From contig CACYFN010000003.1 in the NCBI GenBank assembly GCA_902773675.1, forward strand, positions 3,209-67,208: 64,000 nt of DNA, written 5' to 3'. The notes beneath the pieces are model-generated. The model saw nothing but the letters and a program-made list of their open reading frames with translations, did no database searches and had not been told where the DNA came from. The DNA comes from an uncultured Erysipelotrichaceae bacterium (GTDB lineage Bacteria; Bacillota_I; Bacilli_A; RF39; UBA660). The position numbers and the translations under genes are program-made. Position 1 is the first letter of the stretch. Every line of letters begins with the position of its first letter. Shown here one piece after another: positions 13,483 to 22,864 of this stretch.

Positions 13483-14628
13483 ATGGGAATGGGAATAATA
13501 AAAGAAATCGATAGAATTTTAAAAAGCTCTCATTATAGGCCTATATTCCTTAAACTAAACAGTATTGACAATGATTCCACATTATTTAGCATATTAGATA
13601 ATATGCAAGAAAGTGAAAAGGAAGAGTTAGAAGAAGCTATTATTGGTTTAACATTAAGAGAAGAAATAAGCAAAGAAGAAAACAATATTCTAAATAAATA
13701 TAAAAATTATGTAATGAAAAAATCAAACAAAAATATTATGGAATATCTAAATAATAATTATTTAAGTTTTTTATACCATAAAGAATTTGAAGAAATAGTT
13801 AAAGATAGTAATTATGATTCGCAAATAAATCAAAAATCTATTTGGGAAATATATCAAGAACTATGTGATAAATTCAATGAAATAAGTGCCAAACTAGAAA
13901 ATAATACTAAACTTACAAATGAAGAGCACAAATTTTTTAAAAAGTATTTGTTAAGCACAGCATTTTATGATATGATTAATAAAAAGTATGAGGATGAAAA
14001 TGATATTATGTATGATGTAGTTGAATATTTTGATAAATATCCAATTACAAATTTTAATAATATTGAAAATAGACAACTATATATACTATATAATTTATCA
14101 AAACAACTTCTTAAAATAAATGTAGATAGTATTATTACATTTGATAGATATCATAATGAAGAAGACATTAGATGTGAAGGATTTTATAAAAAATTATCTG
14201 ATGGAAGATATCAAATAAATATAAGTAATCTAGAAGACATATATTTGAAAGATGAGAAAACAATGTATGAAAGTTTATTTACAGTCTTTCATGAACTTGG
14301 TCATTTAATGCAAGAAATAAATAATGATGCTTATCCAAAAGAAATTCAAGAATTATTTAAGTGGGAAAAGTATATAATAAATAAAGATAACTCTTTTTAT
14401 AAAAAATATCATGATAGTTTCTATTTAGAAGTAGATGCTGATCAATACGCCTTAACTAAGATGTTAGAATTATTTAAAGAAGAAAAACCAGAGTTTATTA
14501 TTCACTTAATTAATAAAGAAAAGAATAAGAAGAAGATAGAATTTTCAAAATTTTGTAATATTTTATATCAAAAGTATAATCAATTAATTGCTAATCAAGA
14601 AAAAAAATCAGCGCAACAACACCATTAA
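13483..14628 (+). CDS. Putative zinc metallopeptidase-like protein (HExxH; possibly ImmA/IrrE-like), no signal peptide
   Basis: HELGHLMQE motif at residues 270-278. It lies between ppdK and the XRE/DinD-like modules. No other family signature is recognisable. Confidence 0.5.
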   Translation: MGMGIIKEIDRILKSSHYRPIFLKLNSIDNDSTLFSILDNMQESEKEELEEAIIGLTLREEISKEENNILNKYKNYVMKKSNKNIMEYLNNNYLSFLYHKEFEEIVKDSNYDSQINQKSIWEIYQELCDKFNEISAKLENNTKLTNEEHKFFKKYLLSTAFYDMINKKYEDENDIMYDVVEYFDKYPITNFNNIENRQLYILYNLSKQLLKINVDSIITFDRYHNEEDIRCEGFYKKLSDGRYQINISNLEDIYLKDEKTMYESLFTVFHELGHLMQEINNDAYPKEIQELFKWEKYIINKDNSFYKKYHDSFYLEVDADQYALTKMLELFKEEKPEFIIHLINKEKNKKKIEFSKFCNILYQKYNQLIANQEKKSAQQHH

Positions 14629-14723: not shown

Positions 14724-14785
14724 ACGCAAAAGCGTCCCAACAATTATATATCAAAAGATTAAATAGAAATATTTAGTCTTTTTTA

Positions 14786-14835
14786 TTGATTTGTTTGTTG
14801 CAAATATGCTACAATATATTTGCAAGGAGAGAAAT
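14786..14835 (+). promoter_or_regulatory. Promoter with operator inverted repeat for XRE copy A
   Basis: TTGATT-18-TACAAT. The perfect 10-bp inverted repeat TTGCAAATAT (14798-14807) / ATATTTGCAA (14816-14825) flanks and overlaps the -10. A GGAGAG RBS follows. Confidence 0.5.
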
Positions 14836-15084
14836 ATGAATAAGATAAATGCTGAATTAATAAATGATGATGAATTTGATTTAATATGTAAATATATAAA
14901 ATTAAGAAATGAATCAAATATCAGTCAAACTGAATTAGCAAGAAAAGTGGGTATAGCTAGATCAACAATAGCTAGAATGGAAAGAAATCTACATTCTATA
15001 TCACTTGGAACTTTTACTAGATTATTAGAAGTAATGAATTATAAATTAGAAATAATAAAAAAGGAGGAAAAAAATGAAAAATGA
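14836..15084 (+). CDS. XRE-family helix-turn-helix transcriptional regulator (copy A)
   Basis: HTH segment ISQTELARKVGIARSTIARMERN. ATG at 14836 (the track ORF starts at an upstream in-frame TTG). About 90% identical to copy B at 16129. Confidence 0.8.
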   Translation: MNKINAELINDDEFDLICKYIKLRNESNISQTELARKVGIARSTIARMERNLHSISLGTFTRLLEVMNYKLEIIKKEEKNEK

Positions 15085-15907
15085 TATAATAGCATTAAAT
15101 AAAACGTTTGAAAACGAGAAAATTAGAACTATATGGAATAAGGACGAAGAAAAATATTATATTAGTGTAGTTGATATAGTAAAAGTTTTAATTGATTGTG
15201 ATTATCAACAAGCTAGAAATAATTGGAAAGTTATAAAATTTAGGTTAAAAAAAGAAGGAAATGAAACGGTTACAAATTGTAACCAGTTGAAATTGTTGTC
15301 ACAAGATGGAAAATATCGTTTAACTGATGTAGTTGATATTGAAGGAATGTTTAGGGTTATTGAATCAATTCCATCTAAAAAAGCTGAACCAATTAAGTTA
15401 TGGCTTGCTCATTTAGGAAAAGAGAGAATAGATTAAGAATACGATCCTGAAATAACAATTAATCGAGCGTTAGAAACATATAGAAGAAAAGGTTATTCTG
15501 ATGATTGGATTAATCAAAGATTAAAAGCAATTGATGCAAGAAAAGAATTTACTGATGAATTAAAGAATAATGGTATTGAAAGTAGCAAAGATTTTGCTAT
15601 TTTAACAGATTTATTAACGAAAGTATGGAGTGGCTATACAACTAAGGAATATAAACAATATAAAGGATTAACAAAAGAAAATTTAAGAGATAATATGACT
15701 AATATGGAATTAGTACTTAATATGTTAGCAGAAGTAACATCAACTGAAATAGCTAAGTCAAATGATAATAAAAATAAGGATAATGCTAAAGATTCAGTTA
15801 TACAAGGCGGTCTAATTGCTAAAAACACAAAAGAACAAATAGAAAGTAAAACCGGTAAAAAAATAGTAACAAGTACAAATAATAAAAATATAAAACAAAT
15901 AAAATAA
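15074..15907 (+). pseudogene. DinD/Bro-N-like DNA-damage-inducible protein, copy A, interrupted by an in-frame TAA at 15434-15436
   Basis: One reading frame 15074..15907 with a single internal stop (ERID*EYDPEI); copy B reads ERIDEIFDPSI at the same place. Bro-N core KYRLTDVVDIEGMFRVIESIPSKKAEPIKLWLAHLG, and a C-terminal part alignable with E. coli DinD. Confidence 0.5.
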
Positions 15908-16030: not shown

Positions 16031-16078
16031 TTGAAGTGATGTGTCCTTCAAATAGTTCACAAAAACTAGTTTTTTTTG

Positions 16079-16128
16079 TTGATTTATTTGTTGCAAATAT
16101 GCTACAATATATTTGCGAGGAGAGAAAT
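16079..16128 (+). promoter_or_regulatory. Promoter with operator inverted repeat for XRE copy B
   Basis: Near-identical to 14786-14835. TTGCAAATAT (16091-16100) / ATATTTGCGA (16109-16118) around TACAAT. Confidence 0.5.
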
Positions 16129-16380
16129 ATGAATAAGATAAATGCTGAATTAATAAATGAGGATGAATTTGATTTAATATGTAAATATATAAAATTAAGA
16201 AATGAATCAAATATCAGTCAAACTGAATTAGCAAGAAGAGTGGGTATAGCTAGATCAACAATAGCTAGAATGGAAAGAAATTTGCATTCAATGTCACTCG
16301 GAACTTTTATTAAATTGTTAGAAGCAATGAATCATAAACTAGAAATAGTCAAAAAGGAGGATACTAATGAATCAAGATAA
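16129..16380 (+). CDS. XRE-family helix-turn-helix transcriptional regulator (copy B)
   Basis: MNKINAELINEDEFDLICKYIKLRNESNISQTELARRVGIARSTIARMERN. Paralogue of copy A. Confidence 0.8.
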   Translation: MNKINAELINEDEFDLICKYIKLRNESNISQTELARRVGIARSTIARMERNLHSMSLGTFIKLLEAMNHKLEIVKKEDTNESR

Positions 16381-16526
16381 AATGTATTTAATTAATAAAT
16401 AAATTATTTAATAATAAAACTATAAGAACAGTATGGGACAAGGATGAGGAAAAGTACTATGTTAGTGTAGTTGATGTAGCTGGAGCAGCTTCTGATAGTG
16501 ATAATCCTAGAAAGTATTGGAATTGG

Positions 16527-17237
16527 TTGAAAAATAAAATAACAAAAGAAGAAAATTTTGAAACGTCTAGTATTACTAGACAGTTGAAATTGAAAGCTCA
16601 AGATGGTAAATATCGTATGACTGATGTTGTAGATATTGAAGGTATGTTTAGAATAATAGAGTCTATTCCAAGTAAAAATGCAGAACCAATTAAGCAGTGG
16701 TTAGCTCGTTTAGGTAGTGAAAGAATAGATGAAATATTTGATCCTTCAATAGCAACTCAAAGATCTATCGATTTATATCGTGCTAAAGGATTTGATGAAA
16801 AATGGATTACTGAGAGAATAAAAAGTATTCAAAATAGAAAAGAATTAACTGACATTTGGAAAGATGGAGGAATAACTGATTCAAAAGAATATGCAATTCT
16901 TACTAATGAGATATATAAAGAATGGTCTGGAATGAAAGCAAGTGAGTACAAAGAATTTAAAGGGTTAAGAAAAGAATCATTAAGAGATAATATGACTCGT
17001 ATGGAAGAATTGCTTACAGATTTAGGAGAAGAAACAACAAAAGAATTAGCTAAAGAGTATAAACCAGTTGGATTAGAAGCAAATAAGAAAATAGCAAGAA
17101 TGGGTGGAAACACTGCTAAAGTAGCTAGAGAAGATATAGAAAGAAAATTAAATAGGACTATAATAACATCTAATAATAATTTAAATTATAAATATATAGA
17201 AGAAAACAAAGAAATAGAAAATAAACAGATTGTTTAA
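16527..17237 (+). CDS. DinD/Bro-N-like DNA-damage-inducible protein, copy B (frame open from 16392; N-terminus degenerate, first ATG at 16527)
   Basis: The upstream in-frame segment ...KTIRTVWDKDEEKYYVSVVDV matches the N-terminus of copy A, but it is preceded by a stop, and an out-of-frame ATG (MYLINK*) lies just upstream. The C-terminal region DFAILTNEIYKEWSG...KGLRKESLRDNMTRMEELLTDLGEETT resembles E. coli DinD. Confidence 0.55.
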   Translation: MKNKITKEENFETSSITRQLKLKAQDGKYRMTDVVDIEGMFRIIESIPSKNAEPIKQWLARLGSERIDEIFDPSIATQRSIDLYRAKGFDEKWITERIKSIQNRKELTDIWKDGGITDSKEYAILTNEIYKEWSGMKASEYKEFKGLRKESLRDNMTRMEELLTDLGEETTKELAKEYKPVGLEANKKIARMGGNTAKVAREDIERKLNRTIITSNNNLNYKYIEENKEIENKQIV

Positions 17238-17953: not shown

Positions 17954-18014
17954 AAATTAATAATTGTTTAAAACAAAAAATGTTTATGATATAATGAACA
18001 TTAGAGGTGTAAAA

Positions 18015-18482
18015 ATGAACGAATTTATGAAAATAGCAAAAGACTTATCAGAAAATAATTTAAAAACAAAAGCCGGAGGACCTTTTGGGGCATGTATTGT
18101 TAAAGATGGAAAAATTATAGGAAAAGGTTCTAATCAAGTTATAAAAAATAACGATCCAACAGCTCATGCTGAAATAATAGCCATAAGAGAAGCATGTAAA
18201 AATATAAACTCTTATGATTTAAGTGGATGCCAGTTATATACATCCTGTTATCCATGTCCAATGTGTCTATCAGCTATTATTTGGTCAAATATTAAAGAAG
18301 TATATTATGGAAATACTAAAGAAGATGCTGCAAATATTGGTTTTAGAGATGATTATATATATGAGTTTATAAAAAACAATAACACAGATAGTTTTGTTTT
18401 AAATTTAGAGTGTATAAATAGAGATGAAACAATTAAAGTATTTGAAGAATACTTAAAAGATGACAATAAAATAGCTTATTAA
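18015..18482 (+). CDS. guaD: Guanine deaminase (CDA-fold, GuaD-like) / nucleoside deaminase
   Basis: GGPFGACIVKDGKIIGKGSNQV...DPTAHAEIIAIREACK...CQLYTSCYPCPMCLSAIIW closely parallels B. subtilis GuaD. ATG at 18015 with AGAGGTG RBS. Upstream promoter TTTAAA-17-(TG)aTATAAT. Confidence 0.65.
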   Translation: MNEFMKIAKDLSENNLKTKAGGPFGACIVKDGKIIGKGSNQVIKNNDPTAHAEIIAIREACKNINSYDLSGCQLYTSCYPCPMCLSAIIWSNIKEVYYGNTKEDAANIGFRDDYIYEFIKNNNTDSFVLNLECINRDETIKVFEEYLKDDNKIAY

Positions 18483-18503
18483 TAAAAAAAGAAGGTGATT
18501 TAT

Positions 18504-19850
18504 ATGGATATAAAAACAAAAGCAAAATTATTCGCAATTAAAGCACATGATGGACAAAGAAGAAAAAGTGATAAAGAAAAACCAATGATAATTCATCCTA
18601 TAAATGTAGCTAATATATTAGAAGAATATAAGCTTGATGATAATGTTATTGCAGCCGGATATCTTCATGATGTAGTAGAAGATACAAAATATGAATTAAA
18701 AGATATAGAAGAAAATTTCAATGAAGATATAATGTCATTAGTAGAAGGTGCTAGTGAACCAGATAAAAGCCTTTCCTGGGAAGAAAGAAAGAAGCACACC
18801 ATAGATACAACTAAAAACTTAGATCTACGTCATAAAGCCATAATATGCGCAGATAAAATAAGCAACTTAGAAGATTTAAGAATATTAATAGAAACAACAG
18901 ACAATTTTGTTTTTTCATCATTTAAAAGAGGATTTGAATCTCAAAAATGGTATTATACAGAAGTATATAATAGCCTAATTTATAATGAAGATGAAAGCAA
19001 TGAAATGTTTATTAGATTAAAAAAACTAATAGATCATATCTTTTATAATCAAAAAGATAATTACATCCAAGATATAATATTTAAAGATAATATTGAAGAG
19101 TTAAATAAACTTAATAAACTACATTATCAAAAAGAAGAATTATATAAATTAAAATGCTTATTAGAAACAGTTCCATATGTAATAGAATTTACAGGTACTC
19201 CTAGAACTGGTAAAACAACATTAATAAACAATTTATATGATTTTTTTAAGAAAAAGGGGTTTATTGTAGAAGTATTAGAAGAATTTACAACATCAAAAAA
19301 ATATAAACAAGAAATATATCCAACATTAAAAGATAAATATAAAAATGTAGTAAATACAGAAATACCAAAATATGTATTAAAACAATTAGAAGAATCAATT
19401 TCTAATAAACCAGATATAATTATAATAGATAGATCGTTATTTGATAGATTAATATGGGTAGATAGATTACATTTAAAAGATGGTATGAGTAAAGAAGAAT
19501 ATGAAGAATATAAAAAATTATATATTCCATTAATAAAAGATAAAATAGATATAATAATTGCTACATATACTGATGCTTTAACATCTCTTAAAAGAGATTA
19601 TTTTGCTCATTTATCACTTGAAAAAAGAAGTTTTCTAAATGAAACAAATGTTAACGAATATAATCATTCATTACTAAATATGCAAGAATTAACTAAATCA
19701 GAAGAAATAAATCTATATTTATTTGATACAACAAATATAAATCAAAGAGAATTATCATTTGAAGTAGCAGAAACTATACTAAAAGATATGAAGAAAAAAT
19801 ATATTAAAAGAATAAATGATAATAAAGAATTAATTAAAAAACAAGACTAG
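18504..19850 (+). CDS. Two-domain protein: N-terminal HD-domain (p)ppGpp-hydrolase-like, C-terminal P-loop nucleoside/nucleotide-kinase-like
   Basis: The N-terminus AHDGQRRKSDKEKPMIIHPINVANILEEY...AAGYLHDVVEDT is the RelA/SpoT/SAH-type HD motif. The C-terminus has Walker A GTPRTGKTTL and a DRS-like IIIDRSLFDRL segment as in dNK/TMPK-family kinases. Confidence 0.6.
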   Translation: MDIKTKAKLFAIKAHDGQRRKSDKEKPMIIHPINVANILEEYKLDDNVIAAGYLHDVVEDTKYELKDIEENFNEDIMSLVEGASEPDKSLSWEERKKHTIDTTKNLDLRHKAIICADKISNLEDLRILIETTDNFVFSSFKRGFESQKWYYTEVYNSLIYNEDESNEMFIRLKKLIDHIFYNQKDNYIQDIIFKDNIEELNKLNKLHYQKEELYKLKCLLETVPYVIEFTGTPRTGKTTLINNLYDFFKKKGFIVEVLEEFTTSKKYKQEIYPTLKDKYKNVVNTEIPKYVLKQLEESISNKPDIIIIDRSLFDRLIWVDRLHLKDGMSKEEYEEYKKLYIPLIKDKIDIIIATYTDALTSLKRDYFAHLSLEKRSFLNETNVNEYNHSLLNMQELTKSEEINLYLFDTTNINQRELSFEVAETILKDMKKKYIKRINDNKELIKKQD

Positions 19851-22091: not shown

Positions 22092-22161
22092 TAAAAAAAA
22101 GAAACCGCCCCCTGAGCAGTTTCTATAAAAGAATAAAAAGGGGTTGGCTAGTGTGATACTA

Positions 22162-22630: not shown

Positions 22631-22864
22631 TTAATTATCTGAAAATAAATCATTAATACTTATATTTAGAGCCTTACAAATATTAAGCATAGTAGATAAA
22701 GTAACATTTTTATATTCTTTACACGATTCAATTTGTTTAATATAAGAAATACTAAAATTAGCCTTTTCCGCAAGCTGTTCCTGAGTTAAATTTAACTTAT
22801 TTCTATAATATTTAACATTATTACTAAATATATTATAATTATTCAAAATATCATTATTCTTCAT
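22631..22864 (-). CDS. XRE-family HTH transcriptional regulator
   Basis: LTQEQLAEKANFSISYIKQIE HTH. It is divergent from a second HTH gene. Confidence 0.7.
   Translation of the reverse strand: MKNNDILNNYNIFSNNVKYYRNKLNLTQEQLAEKANFSISYIKQIESCKEYKNVTLSTMLNICKALNISINDLFSDN

Follow-up and report, generated by a model that had tools for sequence, protein, structure and literature searches.

The 64,000-nucleotide stretch analysed here (contig CACYFN010000003.1, from an uncultured Erysipelotrichaceae bacterium, and referred to below as the window) raises the question of what is done by a single protein that joins a RelA/SpoT-type HD domain to a P-loop kinase-like domain. An original prediction, made from the sequence alone, had picked out this gene as an unusual fusion and had drawn its function partly from the genes around it. 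The answer that we favour is that the protein would be a bifunctional enzyme of nucleotide metabolism, each half being catalytic, and would couple the clearance of alarmones to rephosphorylation in purine recycling. This answer is given a probability of about 40%. Below, the evidence for the two domains is presented first, followed by the wider kinase family, the distribution and surroundings of the gene, and the alternatives.

The gene and its product

The gene is a single open reading frame (ORF) of 448 codons plus a stop, delimited exactly as originally predicted (Table 1). In the ORF listing it runs from 18495 to 19850 on the + strand, with 451 amino acids counted from a GTG at 18495. We take translation to start instead at the ATG at 18504, because the GTG falls inside a strong Shine-Dalgarno site, which is itself spaced 7 nt from the ATG (...AAAAAAGAAGGTGATTTATATGG...). 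All of the motifs that had been quoted for the protein are found in it, namely AHDGQRRK (residues 14-21), IIHPINV (29-35), YLHDVVEDT (53-61), GTPRTGKTTL (231-240) and DRS (309-311). An identical protein is present on 15 contigs of public assemblies, and the best-matching database clusters, where they are named, carry the label 'HD domain-containing protein [Bacilli bacterium]'.

The AlphaFold2 models have a pLDDT of 89.6 and a pTM of 0.86-0.87 (0.86 for the full-length model), and the two domains are predicted to pack confidently into one body. Conservation was counted over 79 sequences, these being the window sequence and those of 78 species-level genomes (gut 'Bacilli/Tenericutes' metagenome-assembled genomes, MAGs). 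As judged from the sequences, both active sites look intact and under purifying selection.

The N-terminal hydrolase domain

The N-terminal domain matches Pfam HD_4 (PF13328) over residues 10-126, with 66.6 bits against a cut-off of 27.2 and an E-value of 2.8e-18. There is also a partial match to the NCBIfam family TIGR00691 spoT_relA, covering profile positions 4-125 of 687, at the hydrolase end of the model (85 bits against a cut-off of 499); no RelA_SpoT synthetase, TGS or ACT domain was detected in the protein using Pfam and NCBIfam. The best sequence match in the PDB, over residues 5-180, is Lmo0812 of Listeria (4yf1; E 1.7e-33, 39% identity), a stand-alone protein of 187 residues whose whole length is spanned by the alignment. 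The matches ranked after it are Drosophila and human Mesh1, to which the identity is 29-31%, and the hydrolase domains of Rel. Comparison of the model with 4yf1 using Foldseek gives a target-normalised TM of 0.87-0.91, the corresponding values being 0.82-0.85 for the RelH structures 7qoc, 7qod and 7qoe, and 0.79-0.85 for RelH and MESH1 taken together. Among small alarmone hydrolases (SAHs), the MixSpo (RelH) subfamily includes Lmo0812 together with the RelH proteins of Corynebacterium glutamicum and Leptospira (PMC10434055).

Alignment with Drosophila Mesh1 and Lmo0812 identifies the metal ligands as H31, H55-D56 and D117, and the catalytic pair as E59-D60; N121 is likewise aligned. All of these residues, together with R20 and K21 of the nucleotide-contact motif R20-K21-S22 (within GQRRKS), are conserved in 77-79 of the 79 sequences. 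Within this range, R20 and K21 are found in 78 and N121 in all 79; S22 is more variable, being present in 60 and replaced by T or N in 14 more. In Thermus thermophilus Rel, the guanine is contacted by R43-R44-S45, and the Asn of ADxxxN, compared here with N121, is N150; the ppApp-specific Aph1 carries D-K-A at the contact motif (PMC10083569). The R-K-S of the window protein corresponds to the former and is unlike the latter.

The residues retained are, by alignment, those with which Rel, SpoT, Mesh1 and RelH bind the metal and remove the 3'-pyrophosphate from (pp)pGpp. The N-terminal domain is thus predicted to be an Mn2+-type HD hydrolase of the SAH family, with every metal and catalytic residue kept. 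A RelA/SpoT/SAH-type HD domain was what the original prediction had placed here, and the concern that it might lack the catalytic metal ligands on closer alignment proved unfounded.

The C-terminal kinase domain

Between the two domains lies a helical linker, which we assign to the kinase family because stand-alone kinase relatives carry the same segment at their own N-terminus. Across species its mean identity is 45%, while the HD and kinase domains reach 69% and 63%, respectively.

Over residues 227-325 the C-terminal half matches Pfam AAA_28 (PF13521; 35.0 bits against a cut-off of 27), so that each half of the protein scores above cut-off when searched at the level of domains. The window protein has no match to Pfam dNK (PF01712), to Pfam Thymidylate_kin (PF02223) or to the NCBIfam dTMP kinase family; among its relatives there are sub-threshold matches to thymidylate kinase (TMPK), and one (P0153) matches dNK at 36 bits. 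The modelled fold is a five-stranded P-loop core with a lid, and the structures nearest to it are all small-molecule kinases. Thymidylate kinases head the fold matches with figures of 17.7, 17.4, 16.9, 16.6, 16.5 and 16.3, followed by polyphosphate kinase 2 (16.1, 15.8), deoxynucleoside kinases (dNKs; 15.4, 15.4) and the NadR kinase domain (14.9), with adenylate, dephospho-CoA, adenosine phosphosulfate (APS) and gluconate kinases at lower figures than NadR. No AAA+, ABC, helicase or polynucleotide-kinase structure is among the top 60 matches. Foldseek, run with the full model, returns Giardia deoxyadenosine kinase (dAK), human dCK, Dm-dNK, the TMPKs of Staphylococcus aureus and human, and the cytidine kinase AbmG. 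Similarly, a profile made from diverse family members matches Mycoplasma mycoides dAK (E 3.5e-8), Giardia dAK (9.3e-8) and Aquifex TMPK (2e-7). The same profile also matches archaeal FtsY and SRP54, with E-values down to 7.5e-12. An SRP-type GTPase was nevertheless rejected, and the matches are taken as general kinase-GTPase P-loop similarity, because the alignment runs from the P-loop to Walker B only and has no support from the fold.

The individual motifs can be placed on those of known kinases. In the profile alignment, E260 falls on the YEPV of Giardia dAK (8puu), and D309-R310-S311 aligns with the QDRS of 8puu and the MERS of AbmG (8j5e), making it the counterpart of ERS in dNKs and DRY in TMPKs; R364 aligns with the first lid arginine of dNKs. 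In the wider family, E260 and R364 are invariant in alignment A5, and R310 in A4/A5. The Arg inside the P-loop GTPRTGKT stands at what we take to be the position used catalytically by type I (human, yeast) TMPKs, which we treat as a lead only. The domain looks like an active kinase because its key residues are present in 78-79 of the 79 sequences.

Both sequence and model therefore predict an ATP-dependent small-molecule kinase of the dNK/TMPK fold group, whose P-loop is intact and which has the Glu of the acceptor site, the DRS motif and the lid arginines in place. The alternative that had been foreseen for this half of the protein, a non-kinase P-loop ATPase, is at odds with the conservation of Walker A, DRS and lid arginines and with fold matches that are small-molecule kinases. 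The acceptor may be either a nucleoside 5'-OH, as in dNKs, or the phosphate of a nucleoside monophosphate (NMP), as in TMPKs; the present sequence data fit both.

The wider kinase family and its hydrolase partners

The 263 C-terminal residues, used as the query of an exhaustive HMMER search, retrieved 506 representatives at E <= 1e-3, of which 164 scored at E <= 1e-10. The family is marked by a distinctive set of motifs (GTPRxGKT, EEP/F, DR[SG]xxDxxxW and RDY...LxLExR) and by an extra N-terminal helix. Its members are found in a series of domain architectures, listed in Table 1, in which the partner of the kinase may be HD_4, a generic HD, a dGTPase-like HD or NUDIX. Fusions of the kinase to several unrelated phosphohydrolase domains are found in metagenomic lineages other than that of the window. 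A partner may also be encoded next door. In the loci of P0293 and P0284, the kinase gene adjoins or overlaps, at its 3' end, a gene for a 155-aa protein resembling NT5C-type 5'(3')-deoxyribonucleotidases (25.7 bits against a cut-off of 24.8), and the same gene follows the HD_4-kinase gene in locus L072. This suggests that the coupling of a TMPK/dNK-like kinase to nucleotide phosphohydrolases of varying fold is a recurrent theme, and it is this recurrence, more than anything else, that argues for related substrates of the two halves of the window protein.

Versions with an additional N-terminal HD domain before HD_4-kinase occur in MAGs from rabbit gut, and P0123 has the same arrangement. In locus L087 (3448-4825), HD_4 (186 aa) and kinase (274 aa) are encoded by separate genes with an 8-nt overlap, AGGTGA preceding the ATG of the kinase, and a dCTP-deaminase-like gene lies downstream. 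Little weight is given to this split pair, because the contig has ftsH in fragments and the quality of its sequence is doubtful.

Distribution and conservation

A search of the protein database gave 1,451 matches at E <= 0.001; all of the best 120 clusters (69-100% identity) are about 445 aa long and carry both domains. A survey of a species-representative genome collection gave 162 stretches confirmed by tblastn, of which the best 80 loci (53-78% identity) were used for reading the flanks; in these 80 loci the fusion is conserved, that is, in at least 80 related species. Because the same architecture of about 445 aa recurs in the best 120 clusters and in the 162 genome stretches, the fusion is not an artefact of assembly. 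The G+C content of the window is 20-28%, without local anomaly. The fusion gene is a conserved chromosomal gene of its lineage, and no oddity of a single assembly. The original description of the architecture as unusual thus needs to be divided: it is indeed uncharacterised, and it is common.

Nearly all of the best 80 loci come from gut MAGs labelled as Bacilli, Tenericutes, Mollicutes, Mycoplasmatota, Clostridium sp. CAG:433 or Firmicutes CAG:321. We take the genomes that carry the fusion to belong to the order RF39 in the GTDB taxonomy. Members of RF39, an order of Bacilli that has yet to be cultivated, are described as having much reduced genomes and many auxotrophies, and as widespread in human gut metagenomes (PMC6784871).

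Gene neighbourhood

The gap between the upstream deaminase gene and the fusion gene is 21 nt, and Tex starts 36-69 nt downstream of the fusion gene, depending on the start codon; no terminator-like site was seen on the + strand between the three genes. The deaminase is guaD-like, as originally predicted, and falls under the TadA equivalog cut-off (78.5 against 150 bits). The tdk and ppdK genes are also where they had been placed, 5-8 kb upstream of the fusion gene. What does not hold is the function that had been read from these neighbours. The guaD/tdk/ppdK/Tex arrangement is confined to contigs of the same species. A tblastn search with the window neighbours against 80 other-species loci found ppdK adjacent in one, tdk in one, and guaD and Tex in none, and all-against-all clustering of the flanking ORFs of the 80 loci revealed no widely shared neighbour. 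A conserved operon with guaD, tdk, ppdK and Tex is ruled out by this lack of adjacency, and a pathway reading from the local neighbours is unsupported, because the arrangement is limited to one species.

Other associations are seen in a minority of the 80 loci. A gene for an HTH_11-WYL regulator lies upstream on the same strand in 13, being directly adjacent in about 10. Small Nudix/MutT-like genes are found just downstream of the fusion gene in about 8, and an NT5C-like gene near it in 2. At a single further locus (L093), that of a kinase relative without HD, the upstream regulator is NrtR (Nudix plus winged helix). Both HTH_11-WYL and NrtR are regulator types that sense ligands.

Table 1. 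Location of the fusion gene, its domains and motifs and its upstream neighbour in the window, with examples of related loci and of architectures in the kinase family.
Feature	Coordinates or examples	Strand	Residues or length	Remarks
HD_4 + P-loop kinase fusion gene	18504..19850	+	448 aa	Single ORF; stop codon at 19848-19850 included
Shine-Dalgarno site AGAAGGTGA	18488..18496	+		Sequence reading; 7 nt 5' of ATG 18504
RelA/SpoT-type HD hydrolase domain (SAH, MixSpo/RelH-like), predicted	18504..19043	+	1-180	Pfam HD_4, 4yf1 similarity, residue conservation
Helical linker IF...L..LH.KK..L	19044..19163	+	181-220	Model helices 187-192 and 197-217
P-loop nucleoside/nucleotide-kinase-like domain (AAA_28; TMPK/dNK/PPK2 fold group)	19164..19823	+	221-440	
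Walker A/P-loop G231-T-P-R234-T-G-K237-T238	19194..19217	+		Arg within loop; G231, P233, R234, G236, K237, T238 in 79/79
E259-E260-F261, after strand 2	19278..19286	+		E260 in 79/79; aligns with Glu of dNK 'EP' motif
D309-R310-S311-L-F-D314-R315, Walker B + DRS	19428..19448	+		D309 in 78/79; R310, D314, R315 in 79/79
Lid segment R364-D-Y ... L-S-L-E373-K-R375	19593..19628	+		R364, Y366, R375 in 79/79
Guanine-deaminase-like CDA-fold deaminase, upstream neighbour	18012..18482	+		1wkq/1tiy, B. subtilis guanine deaminase, E 1e-37
HTH_11-WYL gene upstream of fusion gene	L021 5385-5990; also L024, L026, L035, L036, L051, L070, L072, L074			Example loci
NT5C-like gene	L088 4342-4809; L093 4818-5282; L072 7321-7785			Three sublineages; L072 is an HD_4-kinase locus
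HD_4 + kinase	Many		~440 aa	
HD + HD_4 + kinase	P0123; L078 5362-7329, L081 5347-7335, L084 5371-7332		644 aa (P0123); 654-663 aa (L078, L081, L084)	L078, L081, L084 from rabbit-gut MAGs
Generic YedJ/HDIG-like HD + kinase	P0142			
dGTPase-like HD ... kinase	P0190		874 aa	
Kinase + C-terminal NUDIX	P0179, P0207, P0227, P0302, others			JGI name 'predicted NUDIX family phosphoesterase/thymidylate kinase'
Two tandem kinase modules	P0153			
N-domain of no known family + kinase	P0293		215 aa (N-domain)	
Stand-alone kinase			230-285 aa	JGI name 'thymidylate kinase'

A defence or phage origin was considered and rejected. The PADLOC defence-system models gave no family at E <= 0.01, tblastn of the kinase domain gave no phage match, and the PHROGs matches were only to generic phosphohydrolase and thymidylate-kinase families.

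Some further features of the window may be recorded here. The sole strong terminator-like hairpin between 17.2 and 22.4 kb, an 11-bp stem followed by a T-run, is at 22100-22124 on the - strand, just past the Tex stop; since it is on the opposite strand to Tex, it is probably the terminator of the convergent HTH gene at 22631-22864. Another feature is the tandem duplication (14774-15546 and 16067-16843) of a cassette of about 1.3 kb that encodes an HTH_3 regulator and a Bro-N-domain protein, the copies sharing 93% identity over the first 300 nt and 70-75% beyond. Of the two Bro-N genes, the first is interrupted in the window (120 aa at 15074-15436; 70 aa at 15695-15907), but in the same-species contigs L003 and L004 it is intact and encodes 277 aa. 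The 381-aa ORF at 13483-14628 has no Pfam match and bears HELGH, a zincin-like motif (…FTVFHELGHLMQ…); possibly it is a metallopeptidase that has yet to be characterised.

Proposed function and alternatives

In the reading that we favour, the N-terminal domain would remove the 3'-pyrophosphate from (pp)pGpp, and possibly from (pp)pApp, to give 5'-nucleotides and pyrophosphate (PPi), and the C-terminal domain would use ATP to phosphorylate nucleosides or nucleotides of the same purine pool, back towards nucleoside di- and triphosphates. The protein may then help a gut bacterium that has a reduced genome and depends on salvage to recover from alarmone-induced arrest or to avoid it. The underlying logic would be that of a kinase joined to a nucleotide phosphohydrolase, as with the Nudix, other HD and NT5C-like partners in the kinase family.

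Several points weigh against this. The substrates given above for the two halves are our best guess. The kinase motifs suggest a further difficulty, in that a dNK-like 5'-OH kinase could not directly use the GMP, GDP or GTP released by the hydrolase. The neighbourhood, as read in the 80 loci, provides no anchor in a pathway. Complexes of MESH1 with NADPH and with PAPS (PDB titles 5vxa and 9chy) are among the fold matches of the HD domain; as Mesh1-type hydrolases also dephosphorylate NADPH and bind PAPS, the true substrate may not be an alarmone. Finally, no synthetase of the RelA/SpoT homologue (RSH) type (Rel/SAS) was found either within the 64-kb window or in related loci totalling about 1 Mb, a sample too small to be informative.

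One alternative is that the two halves are antagonistic, the kinase making a signalling nucleotide (by conversion of pGpp to ppGpp, or by phosphorylation of a 3'-OH) that the SAH domain degrades, which would make the protein an analogue of Rel/SpoT independent of any RSH synthetase. Opposing activities on one chain are the logic of Rel/SpoT, and the long RSH enzymes do resemble the window protein in having a homologous N-terminal hydrolase followed on the same chain by a second nucleotide-phosphotransfer domain; they differ in that the second domain here is a P-loop kinase and not of the RelA_SpoT synthetase fold, and in that TGS and ACT are missing. The repeated pairing of the kinase family with hydrolases that cleave pyrophosphate or polyphosphate bonds (SAH, Nudix, dGTPase-like HD) would also fit, as would the regulators of nucleotide-sensing type that adjoin some members (HTH-WYL in 13 of the 80 loci, NrtR in one relative), although these associations are sparse. 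The idea is without biochemical precedent, and the conserved Glu aligns with the base that acts on the 5'-OH in dNKs. We consider it unlikely. The more specific proposal, that the kinase is a P-loop 'synthetase' for a nucleotide messenger (ppGpp made from pGpp, or a 3'-phosphorylated purine nucleotide) and the SAH domain its dedicated hydrolase, we consider very unlikely. If it were true, reduced-genome gut Bacilli would have an on/off switch for an alarmone without a RelA/SpoT-type synthetase, and the relatives with links to Nudix, HD and NT5C would represent variants of one kinase/hydrolase signalling module.

The MESH1 complexes noted above lead to another alternative, in which the protein acts on NAD(P) or related cofactors, or on 3'-phosphonucleotides, a Mesh1-like HD phosphatase (for NADPH, or pAp/PAPS) being joined to a kinase of NadR type for ribosylnicotinamide or a related nucleoside. 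The C-terminal domain is assigned by Pfam to AAA_28, a family to which the NadR kinase domain presumably belongs. In the HD domain, ADKISNLEDL resembles ADKLDNLRDL of Drosophila Mesh1, with an Asp at N+3 where S. aureus Rel has a Thr. The regulator NrtR, directly upstream of one kinase relative, is that of the NAD regulon, and fusions to Nudix are typical of NAD salvage enzymes (PMC9503650). Against this, the HD domain is nearer to MixSpo/RelH than to Mesh1 by the identities given above, and the kinase resembles TMPK and dNK more than it does NadR or NRK1, NadR being the weaker fold match in spite of an AAA_28 score above cut-off. The protein, unlike NadR and NadM-Nudix, has no nicotinamide mononucleotide (NMN) adenylyltransferase domain, pnuC, nad and other NAD salvage genes are absent among the neighbours of the fusion gene, and the link to NrtR is a single locus of a relative that has no HD. 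On balance we find this reading improbable.

A third alternative makes the P-loop domain mainly a regulatory sensor, which would bind ATP, GTP or an alarmone and gate the hydrolase allosterically. In its favour, long RSH enzymes control their hydrolase through an adjacent domain, the two domains are predicted to pack confidently (pTM 0.86), and conserved pathway neighbours that might indicate a metabolic role are lacking. It is difficult to reconcile with the retention, in 78-79 of 79 sequences, of D309, R310, R364 and R375, residues needed only for phosphoryl transfer, with the invariance of E260, R364 and R310 across the wider family, and with the existence of stand-alone kinase copies that have no hydrolase at all; we regard it as quite unlikely.

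The weakest alternative is the healing of nucleic-acid ends, in which HD would remove a 3'-phosphate or 3'-pyrophosphate from RNA, for example at the CCA end of tRNA, and the kinase would phosphorylate a 5'-OH. SAHs are reportedly able to reverse the pyrophosphorylation of the tRNA CCA end by RSH toxins. That RSH toxins carry out this pyrophosphorylation is described in a preprint (bioRxiv 10.1101/2021.04.30.441581). The domains of the HD-Pnk of Runella slithyformis come in the identical order, with a phosphoesterase of HD type at the N-terminus and a P-loop 5'-OH kinase at the C-terminus (PMC6097658), and locally the fusion gene precedes that for the RNA-binding protein Tex. This alternative is highly improbable, given that the window protein has a SpoT-type HD_4 and a kinase of TMPK/dNK and not of Pnk type, that no RNA ligase or repair gene cluster occurs in the window or the 80 related loci and no RNA ligase, Hen1 or Tpt1 gene nearby, that no neighbouring toxic small alarmone synthetase (toxSAS) was found, and that the adjacency to Tex is not conserved.

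Comparison with known systems

The stand-alone SAHs of the MixSpo/RelH group (Lmo0812, 4yf1; C. glutamicum RelH, 7qoc/7qod; Leptospira RelH, 7qoe) are matched over their whole length by residues 1-180. Known SAHs are proteins of about 180-200 aa, to which the window protein, at 448 aa, adds a helical linker of 40 aa and a kinase domain of 220 aa. To the TMPKs and dNKs (S. tokodaii TMPK, 2plr; S. aureus TMPK, 4dwj; Giardia dAK, 8puu; human deoxyguanosine kinase, 2ocp) the kinase domain has only 13-18% identity, and its family differs from them in having its own signature motifs and the extra N-terminal helix. Taken together with the comparisons made above, the protein fits none of the stand-alone SAHs, the long RSHs, the curated TMPK and dNK families, NadR or HD-Pnk. 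No description of an SAH-kinase fusion was found in the RSH classification papers or by full-text literature search. Both domain families are known; the fusion of SAH and kinase is uncharacterised, and is new as a combination without being categorically new.

Biological significance

The fusion is conserved and widespread in a prevalent lineage of uncultured gut bacteria. The uncharacterised hydrolase-kinase module to which it belongs, with SAH, generic HD, dGTPase-like HD or Nudix on the same chain and NT5C-like proteins encoded alongside, could bring to light a signalling nucleotide that is new, or else a substrate cycle among nucleotides. If the hydrolysis of alarmones and the phosphorylation of nucleotides are indeed coupled in the window protein, this would show how such bacteria control or bypass the stringent response and manage the purines that they salvage.

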